DNA of 64,000 bases from NCBI RefSeq assembly GCF_003334785.1, contig NZ_QOWV01000014.1, one strand, 5' to 3'. A model generated the notes under the pieces. That model had not been told where the DNA came from and did no database searches. It was given only the letters and a program-made list of their open reading frames with translations. Position 1 is the stretch's first letter, and each line of letters begins with the position of its first letter. Position numbers and translations under genes: made by a program. Below are positions 1-9,352 of the stretch, piece after piece. The stretch is from Escherichia coli. Its GTDB lineage: Bacteria; Pseudomonadota; Gammaproteobacteria; Enterobacterales; Enterobacteriaceae.

Positions 1-230
1 GTGCGGGAGAGGATGAACGGCAGCGGGCCGGGCAGGGCGATGTCGGTTTCACCGGGAAGGACCTTTGCACCGAGCAGCGGATTGACCGGATGGCCGGACG
101 TCACCCCGCCGGGGCACACCGAACAGGCCACGCCGGTGGGGGCACCGATGCGTACCCCGGCTGAACCCTGGACAATGCTACCGCCATACTGCGTCATGTC
201 GCCCTGACGCGCCGCCGGTTTTCCGCTCAT
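1..230 (-). CDS. rhsC: Rhs-family polymorphic toxin protein, N-terminal 76 codons only (gene continues leftwards out of the window)
   Basis: Minus-strand translation from ATG at 230..228 reads MSGKPAARQGDMTQYGGSIVQGSAGVRIGAPTGVACSVCPGG..., the conserved Rhs N-terminus. No stop before the window edge, so absent from the ORF track. Position next to ybfA fits the rhsC locus; the paralog assignment is by synteny only. Confidence 0.8.
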   Translation of the reverse strand, partial: MSGKPAARQGDMTQYGGSIVQGSAGVRIGAPTGVACSVCPGGVTSGHPVNPLLGAKVLPGETDIALPGPLPFILSR

Positions 231-420
231 CTGCTCATCCTTGTTTTATCGGGTTATTTGTCTGCTGACAGGCGAAACCCTACAGATTTATAAGAAAGCC
301 TTAAGTGAGATATCTGTCAGATAAGAACAATTAGGAAAATATTTATATATATTTCATGAATATATGTTTCGATTGGTATAACGATGTCTAAATATTCCTC
401 TGAACATCTTCCTGATACAA

Positions 421-450
421 AAAACCGCCAGCGTTTCCGCTGGCGGTTTT
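421..450. terminator. Bidirectional intrinsic terminator downstream of ybfA (hairpin ccgccagcg/cgctggcgg flanked by A4 and T4)
   Basis: Perfect 9-bp stem at 425..446 with A-run before and T-run after, read directly from the sequence. Confidence 0.7.
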
Positions 451-472
451 CAATGTATTCAAAACTCAGCAA

Positions 473-679
473 TCAATAAAAATCACCAGTTGCCTTTTCG
501 GCCTGATCCATCCACACCGGTTTATCGCTGGTTTTCGACCAGACGCGATGCAGGTAGCTGTAAAAGCGGGCGCGGTCTTTCCAGAAAAGCATGAAAGGCA
601 GCGCCAGAACGCCCGCTGCAACCGCATAAGTACGGCGTAAAAAGATAAGCCATGCAGGATATTCTCTGTAGAGTTCCAT
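473..679 (-). CDS. ybfA: Small DUF2517-family protein YbfA (68 aa)
   Basis: ORF track 473..679 minus, [68 protein letters not shown]; recognised by sequence and by position divergent from kdpF. Confidence 0.85.
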
Positions 680-890
680 ACTTTTCTCCCCCTTTTGTAT
701 CTACCCGGTGAATGGCACCGGAAAAATGAATTTGTTTATCTGATGAAAATAGTACCGCCTTTTGTGTAATTTTACTACTCATCCGACCACTTATTTTTGC
801 TTATTGATGGTTTATTTACATTCATCCTGTAATTAAGTTACACAAAAGTTAAATTAATACTAAACATTAGTTAAATCATGGCTTTTGCCA

Positions 891-918
891 TTTTTATACT
901 TTTTTTACACCCCGCCCG
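891..918 (+). promoter_or_regulatory. KdpE response-regulator binding site of the kdpFABC promoter (TTTTTATACTTTTTTTACACCCCGCCCG)
   Basis: Exact match to the KdpE operator sequence as I recall it from the literature, lying about 75-100 bp upstream of the kdpF start. Confidence 0.75.
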
Positions 919-991
919 CAGATTTTTGCGAAATCTTTGCAGCCAGAATTCTACCCTTCCGGTATCACTTTTAGGCCACTGGAGGTGCACT

Positions 992-1081
992 GTGAGTGCA
1001 GGCGTGATAACCGGCGTATTGCTGGTGTTTTTATTACTGGGTTATCTGGTTTATGCCCTGATCAATGCGGAGGCGTTCTGA
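992..1081 (+). CDS. kdpF: K+-transporting ATPase small subunit KdpF (29 aa)
   Basis: GTG at 992; translation [29 protein letters not shown]; stop TGA 1079..1081 overlaps the kdpA ATG. It is the 3' part of track ORF 878..1081. Confidence 0.85.
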
Positions 1082-2754
1082 TGGCTGCGCAAGGGTTCTT
1101 ACTGATCGCCACGTTTTTACTGGTGTTAATGGTGCTGGCGCGTCCTTTAGGCAGCGGGCTGGCGCGGCTGATTAATGACATTCCTCTTCCCGGTACAACG
1201 GGCGTTGAGCGCGTACTTTTTCGCGCACTTGGCGTCTCTGACCGTGAGATGAACTGGAAGCAATATCTTTGTGCCATTCTCGGCCTGAACATGCTGGGGC
1301 TGGCGGTGCTGTTTTTTATGTTGCTCGGTCAGCACTATCTGCCGCTTAATCCACAGCAGTTGCCAGGGCTGTCGTGGGATCTGGCGCTGAATACCGCCGT
1401 CAGCTTTGTCACCAATACCAACTGGCAATCTTATAGCGGTGAAACCACGTTGAGCTATTTCAGCCAGATGGCGGGCTTAACGGTGCAAAACTTTCTTTCT
1501 GCCGCCAGCGGGATTGCGGTGATTTTTGCCCTCATCCGTGCGTTTACCCGCCAGAGCATGAGCACGCTCGGGAATGCCTGGGTCGATCTGCTACGCATCA
1601 CGTTATGGGTGCTAGTCCCTGTGGCGTTGTTGATTGCACTGTTTTTTATTCAACAAGGTGCGCTGCAAAACTTTCTGCCTTATCAGGCTGTGAATACCGT
1701 TGAAGGAGCGCAACAGCTGTTACCCATGGGGCCTGTAGCTTCTCAGGAAGCGATCAAGATGCTCGGTACTAACGGCGGTGGCTTCTTTAATGCCAACTCG
1801 TCGCATCCGTTTGAAAACCCAACCGCACTGACCAACTTCGTGCAGATGCTGGCGATCTTCTTGATCCCAACGGCGCTGTGCTTTGCCTTTGGTGAAGTGA
1901 CGGGCGATCGCCGCCAGGGGCGCATGTTGCTGTGGGCGATGTCAGTGATTTTTGTCATCTGCGTAGGCGTGGTGATGTGGGCAGAAGTTCAGGGTAATCC
2001 TCATCTGCTGGCACTGGGCACGGACAGCAGCATCAATATGGAAGGTAAAGAGAGCCGTTTCGGCGTGCTGGTCAGTAGCCTGTTTGCGGTCGTGACGACG
2101 GCGGCTTCCTGTGGCGCGGTGATTGCGATGCATGATTCGTTTACCGCTCTCGGTGGCATGGTGCCGATGTGGCTGATGCAAATTGGTGAAGTGGTGTTCG
2201 GCGGTGTCGGTTCTGGTCTTTACGGCATGATGCTGTTTGTCCTGCTGGCGGTGTTTATTGCCGGGCTGATGATTGGTCGTACACCGGAATATCTGGGTAA
2301 AAAAATCGACGTACGCGAGATGAAACTGACTGCACTGGCAATTCTGGTTACCCCGACGCTGGTGCTGATGGGCGCGGCGTTGGCGATGATGACCGACGCC
2401 GGACGTAGCGCCATGCTCAACCCTGGCCCGCATGGTTTTAGCGAAGTGCTGTACGCCGTGTCATCCGCCGCTAACAACAACGGCAGCGCCTTTGCCGGAT
2501 TAAGCGCCAACTCTCCGTTCTGGAACTGTTTACTGGCGTTCTGCATGTTTGTCGGTCGCTTCGGGGTGATTATCCCGGTGATGGCAATTGCCGGTTCGCT
2601 GGTGAGTAAAAAGAGCCAAGCCGCCAGCTCCGGCACGCTGCCAACGCACGGCCCGCTGTTTGTTGGCCTGTTAATCGGCACCGTGTTGCTGGTTGGCGCA
2701 CTGACCTTTATCCCTGCCCTGGCGCTTGGTCCGGTGGCGGAATATCTCTCCTGA
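1081..2754 (+). CDS. kdpA: K+-transporting ATPase subunit A
   Basis: Track ORF 937..2754 trimmed to ATG 1081 ([33 protein letters not shown]...), 557 aa; recognised KdpA sequence. Confidence 0.95.
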
Positions 2755-2776: not shown

Positions 2777-4825
2777 ATGAGTCGTAAACAACTGGCGCTA
2801 TTCGAACCAACACTTGTCGTTCAGGCGCTGAAAGAAGCGGTGAAAAAATTAAACCCGCAGGCGCAATGGCGCAATCCGGTGATGTTTATCGTCTGGATCG
2901 GCAGTCTGCTGACCACCTGTATTAGCATCGCGATGGCAAGCGGTGCGATGCCCGGCAATGCGCTGTTTAGCGCGGCCATTAGCGGTTGGCTGTGGATCAC
3001 CGTACTGTTCGCTAATTTCGCCGAGGCGCTGGCAGAAGGCCGCAGTAAAGCGCAGGCCAACAGTCTGAAAGGGGTGAAAAAAACTGCCTTTGCCCGCAAG
3101 CTGCGTGAGCCGAAATATGGCGCTGCGGCGGACAAAGTTCCTGCCGACCAACTTCGTAAAGGCGATATCGTACTGGTAGAAGCTGGCGATATTATCCCCT
3201 GCGATGGTGAAGTTATTGAAGGGGGTGCATCGGTCGATGAAAGCGCCATCACCGGGGAATCGGCACCGGTGATCCGTGAATCCGGCGGCGATTTTGCCTC
3301 CGTCACCGGCGGCACGCGTATTCTTTCTGACTGGCTGGTGATTGAGTGTAGCGTTAACCCCGGCGAGACATTTCTGGATCGGATGATCGCGATGGTGGAA
3401 GGCGCACAGCGACGCAAAACGCCGAACGAAATTGCCCTGACCATTCTGCTGATTGCCCTGACTATCGTCTTTTTACTGGCAACCGCCACGCTGTGGCCGT
3501 TTTCCGCGTGGGGCGGTAATGCAGTCAGCGTAACGGTACTGGTGGCGCTGCTGGTCTGTCTGATCCCAACCACTATTGGCGGCCTGTTGTCAGCGATCGG
3601 CGTCGCCGGGATGAGCCGGATGCTAGGCGCGAATGTGATTGCCACCAGCGGACGTGCAGTTGAAGCGGCAGGTGACGTTGACGTTCTGCTACTGGATAAA
3701 ACCGGCACCATCACACTCGGTAACCGTCAGGCGTCGGAGTTTATCCCCGCGCAGGGCGTGGATGAAAAAACGCTGGCTGACGCCGCACAACTGGCTTCGC
3801 TGGCTGATGAAACGCCGGAAGGCCGCAGTATTGTGATCCTCGCCAAGCAGCGTTTTAACCTGCGCGAGCGCGATGTGCAGTCGCTCCATGCCACCTTTGT
3901 ACCGTTTACTGCGCAAAGCCGGATGAGCGGGATCAACATCGACAACCGCATGATCCGTAAAGGTTCTGTCGATGCCATTCGTCGCCATGTTGAGGCTAAC
4001 GGTGGTCACTTCCCTACCGATGTTGATCAAAAAGTCGATCAGGTTGCGCGTCAGGGAGCCACGCCGCTGGTGGTGGTGGAAGGTTCTCGTGTGCTGGGCG
4101 TTATTGCGCTGAAAGATATCGTCAAAGGCGGTATTAAAGAGCGCTTCGCCCAGCTGCGCAAAATGGGCATTAAAACGGTGATGATTACCGGCGATAACCG
4201 TCTGACTGCCGCCGCGATTGCTGCGGAAGCGGGTGTCGATGATTTTCTCGCCGAAGCGACACCGGAGGCCAAGCTGGCATTGATCCGTCAGTATCAGGCG
4301 GAAGGTCGTTTGGTAGCGATGACCGGCGACGGCACCAACGATGCTCCGGCGCTGGCGCAGGCAGATGTCGCGGTGGCGATGAACTCCGGCACCCAGGCGG
4401 CGAAAGAGGCGGGCAATATGGTCGATCTCGACTCTAACCCGACCAAGTTGATCGAGGTGGTGCACATTGGCAAACAGATGCTGATGACCCGTGGCTCGCT
4501 GACCACCTTCAGCATTGCCAACGATGTGGCGAAATACTTCGCCATTATTCCGGCGGCATTCGCGGCAACGTATCCGCAGTTAAATGCGCTGAACATCATG
4601 TGCCTGCATTCGCCCGACTCCGCAATCCTCAGTGCGGTGATTTTCAACGCCTTGATTATCGTCTTTTTGATTCCCCTGGCGTTAAAAGGCGTGAGTTATA
4701 AACCGCTTACCGCTTCTGCCATGTTGCGCCGTAACTTATGGATTTACGGTCTGGGTGGGCTGCTGGTGCCGTTTATCGGTATCAAAGTCATTGATTTACT
4801 GCTGACCGTTTGCGGTCTGGTGTGA
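2777..4825 (+). CDS. kdpB: K+-transporting P-type ATPase catalytic subunit B
   Basis: Track ORF 682 aa, [40 protein letters not shown]...; P-type ATPase motifs DKTGT and GDGTND visible. Confidence 0.95.
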
Positions 4826-5406: not shown

Positions 5407-8083
5407 CGAACCCTTACGTCCCGACCCCGATCGTCTGCTGGAACAAACTGCCGCGCCGCATCGGGGGAAGCTGAAAGTTTTCTTCGGTGCCTGTGCAGGC
5501 GTCGGGAAGACCTGGGCGATGCTGGCAGAAGCCCAGCGACTGCGGGCGCAAGGGCTGGATATTGTGGTTGGCGTGGTAGAAACCCACGGGCGAAAAGATA
5601 CCGCCGCCATGCTGGAAGGGCTGGCTGTTCTGCCGTTAAAACGCCAGGCGTACCGTGGGCGGCATATCAGCGAGTTTGATCTCGATGCCGCCCTCGCCCG
5701 CCGCCCGGCGCTGATCTTAATGGACGAACTGGCGCACAGTAATGCGCCAGGTTCCCGTCATCCCAAACGCTGGCAGGATATCGAAGAACTGCTGGAAGCT
5801 GGCATTGATGTTTTCACTACCGTCAACGTTCAGCATCTGGAAAGTCTGAATGATGTGGTCAGCGGCGTCACCGGAATTCAGGTACGGGAAACCGTGCCCG
5901 ATCCTTTTTTCGATGCCGCCGACGACGTGGTGCTGGTGGACTTGCCCCCGGACGATCTGCGCCAGCGGCTGAAAGAAGGCAAAGTCTATATTGCCGGGCA
6001 GGCGGAGCGCGCCATTGAACATTTTTTCCGCAAAGGTAATCTGATCGCCCTGCGCGAACTGGCACTGCGCCGTACTGCCGATCGCGTTGATGAGCAAATG
6101 CGCGCCTGGCGGGGGCATCCTGGCGAAGAGAAAGTGTGGCACACGCGCGACGCGATCCTTTTATGCATCGGCCATAACACCGGCAGCGAAAAACTGGTCC
6201 GCGCAGCGGCGCGGCTGGCGTCACGGCTGGGTAGCGTCTGGCACGCGGTGTATGTTGAAACCCCTGCCCTGCACCGCTTACCGGAAAAAAAACGTCGGGC
6301 AATTCTCAGCGCCTTACGTCTGGCGCAGGAACTGGGCGCGGAGACGGCAACACTTTCTGATCCAGCGGAAGAGAAAGCGGTAGTGCGTTATGCCCGTGAA
6401 CATAATCTCGGCAAGATTATTCTCGGTCGCCCGGCCTCGCGCCGCTGGTGGCGTCGGGAAACGTTTGCTGACCGACTGGCGCGCATCGCCCCCGATCTCG
6501 ATCAGGTGCTGGTCGCGCTTGATGAACCACCCGCCCGCACGATTAACAACGCGCCGGATAACCGCTCTTTTAAAGACAAGTGGCGTGTACAAATTCAGGG
6601 ATGCGTGGTTGCCGCCGCGTTATGCGCCGTTATCACCTTAATTGCCATGCAGTGGCTGATGGCGTTTGATGCCGCCAACCTGGTGATGCTGTATCTGCTT
6701 GGCGTGGTGGTGGTGGCGCTATTTTATGGACGCTGGCCTTCAGTGGTTGCCACCGTCATTAATGTAGTGAGTTTCGATCTCTTTTTTATCGCCCCACGCG
6801 GCACGCTCGCCGTCTCTGATGTGCAATATCTGCTGACCTTCGCGGTGATGTTAACCGTCGGGCTGGTGATCGGGAACCTTACTGCTGGCGTGCGTTATCA
6901 GGCGCGGGTAGCCCGTTACCGCGAGCAACGCACACGGCACTTATATGAAATGTCGAAAGCTCTGGCGGTGGGCCGCAGTCCGCAGGATATCGCTGCCACC
7001 AGCGAACAATTTATTGCCTCCACGTTTCATGCCCGCAGTCAGGTGTTGTTGCCCGATGACAACGGTAAATTGCAGCCGTTAACACATCCGCAAGGAATGA
7101 CGCCGTGGGACGATGCCATCGCGCAGTGGAGTTTTGATAAAGGCCTGCCTGCGGGCGCGGGCACCGACACGTTACCCGGTGTACCGTACCAGATTTTGCC
7201 GCTAAAAAGCGGCGAGAAAACCTACGGGCTGGTGGTGGTGGAGCCGGGGAATCTGCGCCAGTTGATGATCCCGGAACAGCAGCGCCTGCTGGAGACGTTT
7301 ACGCTGTTAGTCGCCAATGCCCTTGAGCGGCTGACGCTAACCGCCAGCGAAGAACAGGCGCGGATGGCAAGCGAACGTGAACAGATCCGCAACGCCCTGC
7401 TGGCGGCGCTTTCGCATGATTTACGCACGCCGCTTACGGTGCTGTTTGGTCAGGCAGAAATCTTAACGCTCGATCTGGCAAGCGAAGGATCACCCCACGC
7501 CCGCCAGGCCAGCGAGATCCGTCAGCATGTGCTGAACACTACCCGACTGGTGAATAATCTACTGGATATGGCGCGAATTCAGTCCGGCGGCTTTAATTTG
7601 AAGAAAGAGTGGTTAACGCTGGAAGAAGTAGTCGGCAGCGCGCTGCAAATGCTGGAACCGGGTTTATCGTCGCCCATCAATCTTTCTCTGCCAGAACCGC
7701 TGACCTTAATCCACGTTGACGGGCCACTCTTTGAACGGGTGCTGATTAATCTGCTGGAGAACGCGGTGAAATATGCGGGTGCGCAGGCCGAAATTGGTAT
7801 CGATGCCCACGTTGAGGGCGAAAATCTACAACTGGATGTCTGGGATAACGGCCCCGGTCTTCCGCCAGGCCAGGAGCAGACGATATTTGATAAGTTTGCT
7901 CGCGGGAATAAAGAGTCGGCAGTACCGGGGGTAGGGCTTGGACTGGCAATTTGTCGGGCGATAGTGGATGTACACGGGGGCACTATTACCGCGTTCAACC
8001 GACCGGAAGGTGGTGCCTGTTTTCGTGTTACACTTCCCCAGCAAACTGCCCCTGAACTTGAAGAATTTCATGAGGATATGTGA
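5399..8083 (+). CDS. kdpD: Sensor histidine kinase KdpD
   Basis: Track ORF 5357..8083 trimmed to ATG 5399 ([38 protein letters not shown]...), 894 aa; histidine-kinase H box (LSHDLRTPL) and ATPase region visible. Confidence 0.95.
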
Positions 8084-8757
8084 CAAACGTTCTGATTGTT
8101 GAAGATGAACAGGCTATTCGTCGCTTTCTGCGCACGGCGCTGGAGGGCGACGGGATGCGCGTCTTTGAGGCCGAAACGCTGCAACGCGGCTTGCTGGAAG
8201 CGGCAACCCGTAAGCCAGATTTGATTATTCTCGATCTCGGCCTGCCCGATGGTGATGGGATTGAGTTTATCCGCGACCTGCGCCAGTGGAGCGCGGTGCC
8301 GGTGATTGTGCTTTCCGCACGCAGCGAAGAGAGCGACAAAATCGCCGCGCTGGATGCCGGAGCGGATGATTATCTGAGTAAGCCGTTTGGCATTGGCGAA
8401 TTGCAGGCCCGTCTGCGCGTCGCATTACGCCGCCACTCTGCCACCACCGCGCCCGATCCGCTGGTAAAATTTTCCGATGTTACCGTCGATTTAGCCGCCC
8501 GCGTGATTCACCGGGGTGAGGAAGAGGTGCATCTCACACCAATTGAGTTCCGCCTGCTGGCGGTGCTGCTCAACAATGCCGGAAAAGTACTCACCCAGCG
8601 CCAGCTCCTTAACCAGGTGTGGGGGCCAAACGCGGTCGAACACAGTCACTATTTGCGTATTTATATGGGACATCTGCGACAAAAACTGGAACAGGATCCC
8701 GCCCGCCCACGCCATTTCATTACTGAAACCGGTATTGGCTATCGGTTTATGCTTTGA
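8080..8757 (+). CDS. kdpE: Response regulator KdpE (OmpR family)
   Basis: Track ORF 225 aa starting GTG 8080 inside the sequence ATGTGA that ends kdpD; [37 protein letters not shown]... Confidence 0.95.
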   Translation: MTNVLIVEDEQAIRRFLRTALEGDGMRVFEAETLQRGLLEAATRKPDLIILDLGLPDGDGIEFIRDLRQWSAVPVIVLSARSEESDKIAALDAGADDYLSKPFGIGELQARLRVALRRHSATTAPDPLVKFSDVTVDLAARVIHRGEEEVHLTPIEFRLLAVLLNNAGKVLTQRQLLNQVWGPNAVEHSHYLRIYMGHLRQKLEQDPARPRHFITETGIGYRFML

Positions 8758-8792
8758 ATATTAATTTTAATACAGCCTGCCTTTTATTAATT

Positions 8793-8822
8793 AAAGCCGT
8801 AATAATAAATACGGCTTTTTAT
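8793..8822 (+). terminator. Intrinsic terminator after kdpE (stem aaagccgt/acggcttt followed by T-run)
   Basis: Inverted repeat 8793..8818 followed by ttttta, read from the sequence. Confidence 0.6.
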
Positions 8823-8990
8823 CTTAAACAACACACAAAAATAACAATTCAATATTTTATATTACTGAGTAAAAAGCTCATCATTAAATAAATTAAGATT
8901 GATCATTTTTTATTGATCACCTTCACAGTTCAACCGTATTTCCTGGATAGAATATCTTCACCTTCATTCACATCAGGAAAGGTAAATTAA

Positions 8991-9095
8991 ATGGAAAATA
9001 ACAGCCGCACTATGCCCCATATAAGGCGGACAACTCATATTATGAAGTTTGCTCATCGCAATAGCTTCGACTTTCACTTCTTCAATGCCCGTTAG
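8991..9095 (+). CDS. speFL: Ornithine-sensing arrest leader peptide of the speF operon (34 aa)
   Basis: Not in the ORF track (too short). ATG 8991 preceded by AGGAAAGG gives MENNSRTMPHIRRTTHIMKFAHRNSFDFHFFNAR, stop TAG 9093..9095; matches the speFL sequence as I recall it. Confidence 0.8.
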   Translation: MENNSRTMPHIRRTTHIMKFAHRNSFDFHFFNAR

Positions 9096-9352
9096 TCTAC
9101 CGACTAAGGGCACTTCAGCGTACAGGTCTTCCTGACTCTCTGTATTACAGGCATATGCCTGTATTCCGCAGTGCTCATTCTCTGTTAACCCTTGTATTAT
9201 CAGCCACCTGACTGGTAAGGGTTTCTGCATTCTGAAAAAAGCAATCTACCTGATTTATTTATCAGCGGGGTAACTTTGCTTTTTTCCGGCACGATCGATT
9301 TCTCATTCGAGAAATTGAGGACCTGCTATTACCTAAAATAAAGAGATGAAAA

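Follow-up and report, generated by a model that had tools for sequence, protein, structure and literature searches.

The 64,000-nucleotide stretch of Escherichia coli DNA analyzed here, which we call the window, opens inside a gene. The minus strand of positions 1..230 translates without a stop into 76 codons (MSGKPAARQGDMTQYGGSIVQGSAGVRIGAPTGVACSVCPGGVTSGHPVNPLLGAKVLPGETDIALPGPLPFILSR), with a start ATG at 230..228 and a Shine-Dalgarno sequence, AAGGA, at 242..238. These codons are the 5′ end of rhsC, and to their right lie an intergenic spacer, ybfA and kdpF. The features are given below with their coordinates, strand and the basis on which each was assigned.

1..230, minus strand: rhsC codons 1-76, the coding sequence continuing past the left edge (translation and comparison with K-12)
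3..89, minus strand: first 29 residues (RhsC 48-76) of DUF6531, which plugs the Rhs cage at its N-terminal end (Pfam)
87..92, minus strand: predicted N-terminal autoproteolysis site H47/P48, codons 47-48 (alignment to the Tse5 shell chain 8cp6_B)
90..230, minus strand: predicted Rhs N-terminal fragment, residues 1-47, equivalent of Tse5-NT (position and length relative to Tse5-NT)
227..144, minus strand: single PAAR-like repeat, residues 2-29 (alignment to the last repeat of 9rce_c and 4jiv_D)
Residues 30-47 of the predicted N-terminal fragment, minus strand: Cys-containing tail
231..349, minus strand: Rhs leader common to the paralogs, 5′ UTR and probably promoter, including the Shine-Dalgarno sequence (alignment with rhsA)
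350..418, minus strand: island-borne, locus-specific AT-rich spacer, 29.9% GC (alignment with rhsA; missing from genomes with an empty site)
419..421, no strand: point where the RhsC accessory island (1..418) meets the conserved backbone (empty-site genomes)
419..450, minus strand: ybfA intrinsic terminator (9-bp GC-rich stem of 446..438 with 433..425, loop 437..434, U-tract of six U at 424..419)
451..472: ybfA 3′ spacer
473..679, minus strand as rhsC, and upstream of it: ybfA, 68 aa, DUF2517/YbfA family, a core gene (open reading frame list and annotation in all matching genomes)
992..1081: kdpF

A sequence-only reading of this DNA had proposed that the window starts inside the 5′ end of an Rhs polymorphic-toxin element, and comparison with known genomes bears this out and names the locus. 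Set against the RhsC element of K-12 MG1655 (rhsC b0700, ybfB, ybfO, ybfC and ybfQ/L/D), the present DNA shares the ybfA-ybgA site and 999 of the 1000 nucleotides of window positions 1..1000, the sole difference being a synonymous base at position 12. The comparison with the rhsA/B/C/D paralogs that the same reading had suggested was also run. All 76 residues are identical in K-12 RhsA, RhsB and RhsC, and 72 of the 76 in RhsD, so the N-terminus described as invariant is invariant within RhsA/B/C and only nearly so beyond them. At the DNA level, the identity over the 230 nucleotides is 229 to rhsC, 224 each to rhsA and rhsB, and 194 to rhsD. The fragment carries the conserved N-terminus (MSGKPAARQGDMTQYGG...) of the RhsA-B-C subfamily (NCBIfam NF041261, RHS_core), and its GC content of 68.3%, against 51.2% for the whole window, fits a GC-rich rhs core. 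A megablast search of 5426 complete E. coli genomes matched the stretch in 5424 of them and covered at least 80% of it in 3693, with the annotation rhsC / ybfA / kdpF; since paralogous loci repeat the Rhs 5′ end, it was found at a median of three places per genome. With ybfA and kdpF inside the window and the ybgA side observed in relatives, the gene at the left edge is rhsC specifically, between ybfA and ybgA and next to kdpFABC. This gene and its element have long been known and have been annotated in K-12 for decades; the recognition was correct but ordinary.

The 76 residues inside the window can be read against Tse5 (PA2684) of Pseudomonas aeruginosa (cryo-EM structure 8cp6), which is the best solved homologue of RhsC. 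The full-length protein of a close relative aligns with the Tse5 shell chain 8cp6_B at an E value of 1e-125, beginning at RhsC residue 48 and residue 1 of the chain. The two proteins are alike in having an N-terminal fragment of about 47 residues followed by PVNP..., a DUF6531 plug and a C-terminal aspartyl autoprotease motif. For Tse5, the N-terminal cut was mapped experimentally between K47 and P48 (PMC10684867). Its 5 kDa N-terminal fragment, Tse5-NT (residues 1-47), carries a PAAR-like module required for secretion and is fixed within the shell by its final 18 residues; the N-terminal plug is made by DUF6531 (PMC10684867). The shell chain starts PVNPMLGSKLLPEEVD, which aligns with RhsC from P48 onward (VNPLLGAKVLPGETD), and RhsC residues 48-75 (PVNPLLGAKVLPGETD) pair with chain residues 1-28. 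Pfam places DUF6531 (PF20148) on residues 46-76 with an E value of 7.2e-6, the first 30 model positions falling inside the window. By this alignment RhsC would be cleaved between H47 and P48. Immediately ahead of the site RhsC has His where Tse5 has Lys; His also occupies this position in RhsA of P. protegens (PMC10684867).

The residues ahead of the predicted cut are harder to assign by homology. Whereas canonical PAAR proteins (PF05488), V. cholerae 4jiv among them, contain three repeats, RhsC residues 2-29 (SGKPAARQGDMTQYGGSIVQGSAGVRIG) align only with the last PAAR repeat, that of 9rce_c at an E value of 0.0075 and that of 4jiv_D at 0.074. The Pfam PAAR_motif match is likewise partial, covering model positions 51-69 of 70 (19 of 70) with an E value of 0.018. 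Measured against a full PAAR domain (about 70-100 residues, three repeats and a score above the family threshold), the 76-residue fragment falls short with its one repeat. We therefore call the RhsC N-terminus only PAAR-like on the basis of these alignments. In a search of solved structures with the window fragment, the Tse5-NT chain was absent among the sequence matches, and the homology of residues 1-47 to Tse5-NT accordingly rests on position and length. By analogy with Tse5 and other solved effectors, this N-terminal module may bind VgrG.

Between rhsC and ybfA, the sequence-only reading had treated 231..470 as a single 240-bp upstream region with promoter character. That description does not hold, since the interval is a composite of a leader shared among the Rhs paralogs, a spacer peculiar to this island, and the terminator of ybfA with its own 3′ spacer. 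Positions 231..349 are identical at 110 of 120 aligned positions to the DNA upstream of K-12 rhsA, and window 1..348 matches the rhsB locus of one other genome at 96.8%. Over 350..418 the agreement with the rhsA upstream DNA drops to 42 of 71 aligned positions. The hairpin that follows begins 22 nucleotides past the ybfA stop codon and folds at -31.8 kcal/mol (z -6.98), with 0 of 200 shuffled sequences as stable. A consensus terminator scan overlooked this hairpin although its folding is very stable. A known RNA family in 1..1200 was considered and dropped: an Rfam search of that interval at E<=1 returned chance sub-threshold matches only, centred on the terminator hairpin.

The boundary is fixed by genomes without the element. 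In such genomes (for example, ST131 strain 4224 and ET350) homology with the window begins only at 419-421, the ybfA terminator is kept, and ybgA lies about 100 nucleotides from ybfA. Accessory DNA thus fills window 1..418, and the U-tract of the terminator marks the start of the core genome. The earlier expectation that the accessory content lies just outside the left edge is right for the variable cargo, which is indeed off that edge, but the island itself reaches into the window to about 418. From empty and occupied sites, the island measures 9188 bp in strain LR-64-2 and about 8.7 kb in strain ECCTRSRTH03, and no target-site duplication was seen at its ends in this comparison. A different situation was observed in QA-1986 83, where homology with the window breaks at 471 and not at 419.

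The composition of the spacer had also been read as strongly AT-rich and typical of a silenced promoter. The AT-richness is real but ordinary for E. coli intergenic DNA. Positions 231..470 have a GC content of 35.8%, against 51.2% for the window, which puts them in the lowest 1.8% of 240-nucleotide windows; the window has nine separate stretches with at least this much AT, namely this one and eight others, including the adjacent ybfA-kdpF spacer. The AT run singled out earlier corresponds to 339..366, most of it within 350..418. A strict scan for the sigma-70 consensus gave 0 sites against 1.8 expected. The best hit of a looser -35/-10 scan of 472..225 on the minus strand is an unconvincing 9 of 12 match with a 19-nucleotide spacer (TCGAAA/TATAAA, 372..342). 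Genomic SELEX performed in vitro placed a peak of the RpoE (sigma-24) holoenzyme in the ybfA-rhsC spacer and RpoH and RpoE peaks inside rhsC (PMC5493296); a simple regular expression for a sigma-E-like motif found none in that spacer. Because a strong terminator separates rhsC from ybfA, transcription of rhsC would be expected to start within the island-borne 231..418.

AT content alone does not identify a silenced promoter, because about 50 nucleotides of the interval are the ybfA terminator and spacer, AT-rich spacers are common, and no sigma-70 promoter was found. Silencing as such is plausible on other grounds. Published occupancy and RNA data for K-12 show, at regional resolution, that the DNA in and around rhsC is highly occupied and transcriptionally silenced, and the silenced, highly occupied domains of K-12 are AT-rich, 72% of them being rich in H-NS. 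One H-NS paper names rhsC, but only for an incidental mutation. The K-12 data suggest that the region may be silent in the present strain as well.

What lies to the left of the window was extrapolated from the genomes of relatives and not from the window's own. The best proxy is ECCTRSRTH03, which has 6 mismatches in the left 25,047 nucleotides and keeps collinearity across the right 25 kb. Only one other genome likewise matches the 14 kb in the middle in one unbroken collinear piece that includes an unusual five-gene tRNA operon. Following the leftward extension that had been recommended, the Rhs core, C-terminal tip, ybfB, orphan rhs and ybfC could all be annotated in relatives. The ECCTRSRTH03 element comprises an intact rhsC (1397 aa, identical to K-12 RhsC), ybfB with one substitution, an orphan rhs fragment, ybfC and ISAs1 remnants. 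LR-64-2, VE-F10 and PEC399 have intact elements in the same arrangement that are 99.7% identical to K-12 over 8 kb. In all four strains, the rhsC gene is intact at 4194 nucleotides and is accompanied by the K-12 tip (ETLKCIKPLHSMGG... in K-12 RhsC) with ybfB next to it. The full-length relative scores 2683 bits against a cutoff of 2000 as an RHS_core equivalog (NF041261), contains YD repeats, and has PISNIDPLGL, an instance of the PxxxxDPxGL motif, at residues 1238-1247. Relative to LR-64-2 and VE-F10, K-12 itself has one additional 380-bp direct repeat within its H-repeat/ISAs1 segment, ybfQ-ybfL (9303..10062 of the compared locus). From these genomes, the element to the left of the window is probably an intact one of the K-12 type.

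Two other parts of the window drew attention during the comparison with relatives. The metT tRNA operon at 32680..33162 has five genes (Met, Leu, Gln-ttg, Met, Gln-ctg), against seven in K-12-like relatives, and the 221-bp difference in length arises because each Gln gene is tandemly duplicated in those relatives. This collapsed arrangement is common to only two complete genomes among the top-ranked ones and could reflect either recombination between tandem copies or collapse during assembly. The other part is 12958..14401, with an AT-rich stretch at 13040..13360 between potE and pgm; in the proxy genome this interval is annotated with a winged-helix fragment, a DUF2625 protein and a lipoprotein, and it may be another small accessory patch.

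The claim that rhs loci are hot spots of intraspecies variation is supported at this site, which is strongly polymorphic across E. coli. Altered versions occur even in genomes that share the window's first 1 kb exactly or are nearest to it over 25 kb: in ML35, which is among the closest genomes over 25 kb, ISKpn26 is inserted in the tip; C1 has lost about 2.6 kb inside the rhs core; and MB06233 carries a frameshifted and shortened rhs together with extra orphan modules. Other genomes have the empty sites described above. A further state is seen in QA-1986 83 (1..2325 of the locus), where the ybfA-adjacent site holds ISEc1, a DcrB-related protein and a larger Rhs gene of 4665 nucleotides; a different Rhs family therefore uses the same hot spot. 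In a set of 30 genomes that share every base of window 1..1000, the annotation is RhsC in 20, "RHS element core protein" in four, "DUF6531 domain-containing protein" in four and "RHS repeat-associated core domain-containing protein" in two.

This variation bears directly on whether rhsC is whole in the present strain. The window could hold the 5′ stump of a pseudogene, with the rhs gene to its left decayed by deletion, frameshift or insertion sequence. A truncated or pseudogenised rhs, the outcome named in advance as counting against a toxin-bearing element, is in fact found in about a third of the genomes with an identical first kilobase. The six genomes of the 30 with fragmentary annotation (the four DUF6531 and two RHS repeat-associated core entries) and the broken genes of C1, MB06233 and ML35 all favor such a remnant. 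ECCTRSRTH03 and the three other close relatives carry the intact 4194-nucleotide gene, however, and 20 of the 30 identical-edge genomes are annotated with RhsC, which makes a remnant rather unlikely here. Since about a third of the identical-edge genomes carry a broken rhs, intactness in the window's own genome is probable but uncertain.

The core might alternatively be intact and end in a different tip, for example, after an orphan tip had recombined onto it with loss of the RhsC tip and ybfB. A model for this is strain L9, which is identical over the first 1 kb and has a full-length 4200-nucleotide "RHS element core protein" gene (7031..11230 of the locus) followed directly by ybfC, without ybfB. 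This is what an orphan tip would produce on recombining onto the main core and deleting the original tip with ybfB. The four identical-edge genomes annotated "RHS element core protein" point in the same direction, as does the count of the ybfA-rhs junction in 3693 genomes against the K-12 tip with ybfB in 2536 of the 5426. The K-12 tip with ybfB is present in each of the four close relatives whose element is intact, and an exchanged tip is very unlikely in the present strain. The most likely continuation off the window is as in K-12: rhsC (1397 aa), ybfB, an orphan rhs fragment, ybfC and ISAs1/H-repeat remnants.

With both comparisons in hand, we regard window 1..418 as very probably the promoter-proximal end of a K-12-type RhsC element, a type VI secretion system (T6SS) Rhs effector by homology, an inserted island of roughly 8.7-9.2 kb that separates the ybfA terminator from ybgA. 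Its 230 coding bases would supply a 47-residue, one-repeat PAAR-like module and the H47/P48 site, and they end 29 residues into DUF6531, the plug that shuts the Rhs cage. On the model of homologous T6SS Rhs effectors with solved structures, Tse5 being the closest, the N-terminal module would dock on the VgrG spike, the YD-repeat shell would enclose a C-terminal toxin of about 150 residues, and aspartyl autoproteolysis after the PxxxxDPxGL motif would free that toxin. YbfB would be the cognate immunity protein that guards the producer. Transcription would begin in the island-borne leader and spacer, in a region that is transcriptionally silent in K-12.

The RhsC tip, RhsC-CT (residues 1248-1397, about 150 in all), is rich in Cys and is encoded with ybfB at 15869..16647 of the LR-64-2-type locus, and the orphan tip with ybfC occupies 13752..15838 of the same relative's locus. 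YbfB has 108 residues, is very hydrophobic and is probably embedded in the membrane. Pfam found no significant family for RhsC-CT, YbfB, the orphan tip or YbfC; NCBIfam gave no match for YbfB, YbfC or YbfA; and a search of a limited literature collection found no paper characterising RhsC-CT or YbfB. The toxin tip is unrelated to that of Tse5, where Tse5-CT is a pore former and RhsC-CT is Cys-rich with no family match. Both RhsC-CT and YbfB lie outside the window, and their roles as toxin and immunity protein are putative.

Whether an intact RhsC could be delivered is a separate matter. The gene has no adjoining vgrG or T6SS gene in the relatives or in K-12. The aspV T6SS island of ECCTRSRTH03 (31974..43023 of the locus) is a remnant with truncated tssH and tssA, tssM, hcp, and a truncated Rhs core adjoining the truncated tssH, and that of LR-64-2 (32287..38803 of the locus) is a remnant reduced to hcp, IS elements and fragments of tssM and an Rhs gene, the truncated Rhs core adjoining the tssM fragment. 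No tssB/C or vgrG is annotated in either aspV island, which covers one T6SS site in two relatives. The arrangement suggests that an Rhs-associated deletion removed most of the T6SS core genes at aspV. Delivery of RhsC may thus be impossible in the present lineage, because the aspV T6SS is a remnant in both relatives checked. A helpful comparison is with Salmonella Typhimurium, whose SPI-6 also has a main rhs followed by a downstream orphan tip with an immunity gene, and whose orphan tips can recombine onto the core in a way comparable to L9. The Salmonella rhs is inside a T6SS island, whereas E. coli rhsC is away from vgrG and T6SS genes. In Salmonella the full-length rhs is silent, and tips are expressed from internal promoters and act as type II toxin-antitoxin modules (PMC7043789).

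These observations raise the possibility that RhsC is no deployable T6SS weapon in this strain but a silent gene that persists either as a selfish or addiction-like module, its tips and immunity genes driven by internal promoters, or as a substrate for recombination. Besides the aspV remnants, the silenced rhsC region of K-12 and the Salmonella precedent, two findings fit: the tip and ybfB occur at 99% identity or above in about half of E. coli genomes (tip matches reach that level in 2695 of the 2778 genomes with any tip match), and the median of three Rhs 5′ ends per genome would offer substrates for recombination. The T6SS evidence is confined to that single site in two relatives, and the open, conserved frame of 1397 codons argues for selection on the whole protein. 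We consider this explanation a serious contender, albeit one that is somewhat doubtful. A more specific proposal is that RhsC-CT and YbfB are an uncharacterised toxin-immunity pair with a T6SS-independent role, either addiction-like maintenance or another export route. The grounds for it are that the pair is at least 99% identical in about half of E. coli, including lineages with a decayed aspV T6SS, and we think it quite improbable. Were it true, the 47-residue single-repeat PAAR-like N-terminus would be a minimal adaptor of some further partner. The T6SS effector assignment by homology is the reading that we prefer for the element as a whole.

Detailed comparison of a well-known gene with its relatives has changed how its immediate surroundings are drawn. 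The boundary between accessory and core DNA is now placed inside the window, at 419-421, and not at the window edge, and the interval that looked like an AT-rich promoter is shown to be in part the terminator of ybfA. At this site in E. coli, a conserved Rhs 5′ end does not reveal which cargo follows it: at least five states of the element exist among genomes that are identical over the first 1 kb.
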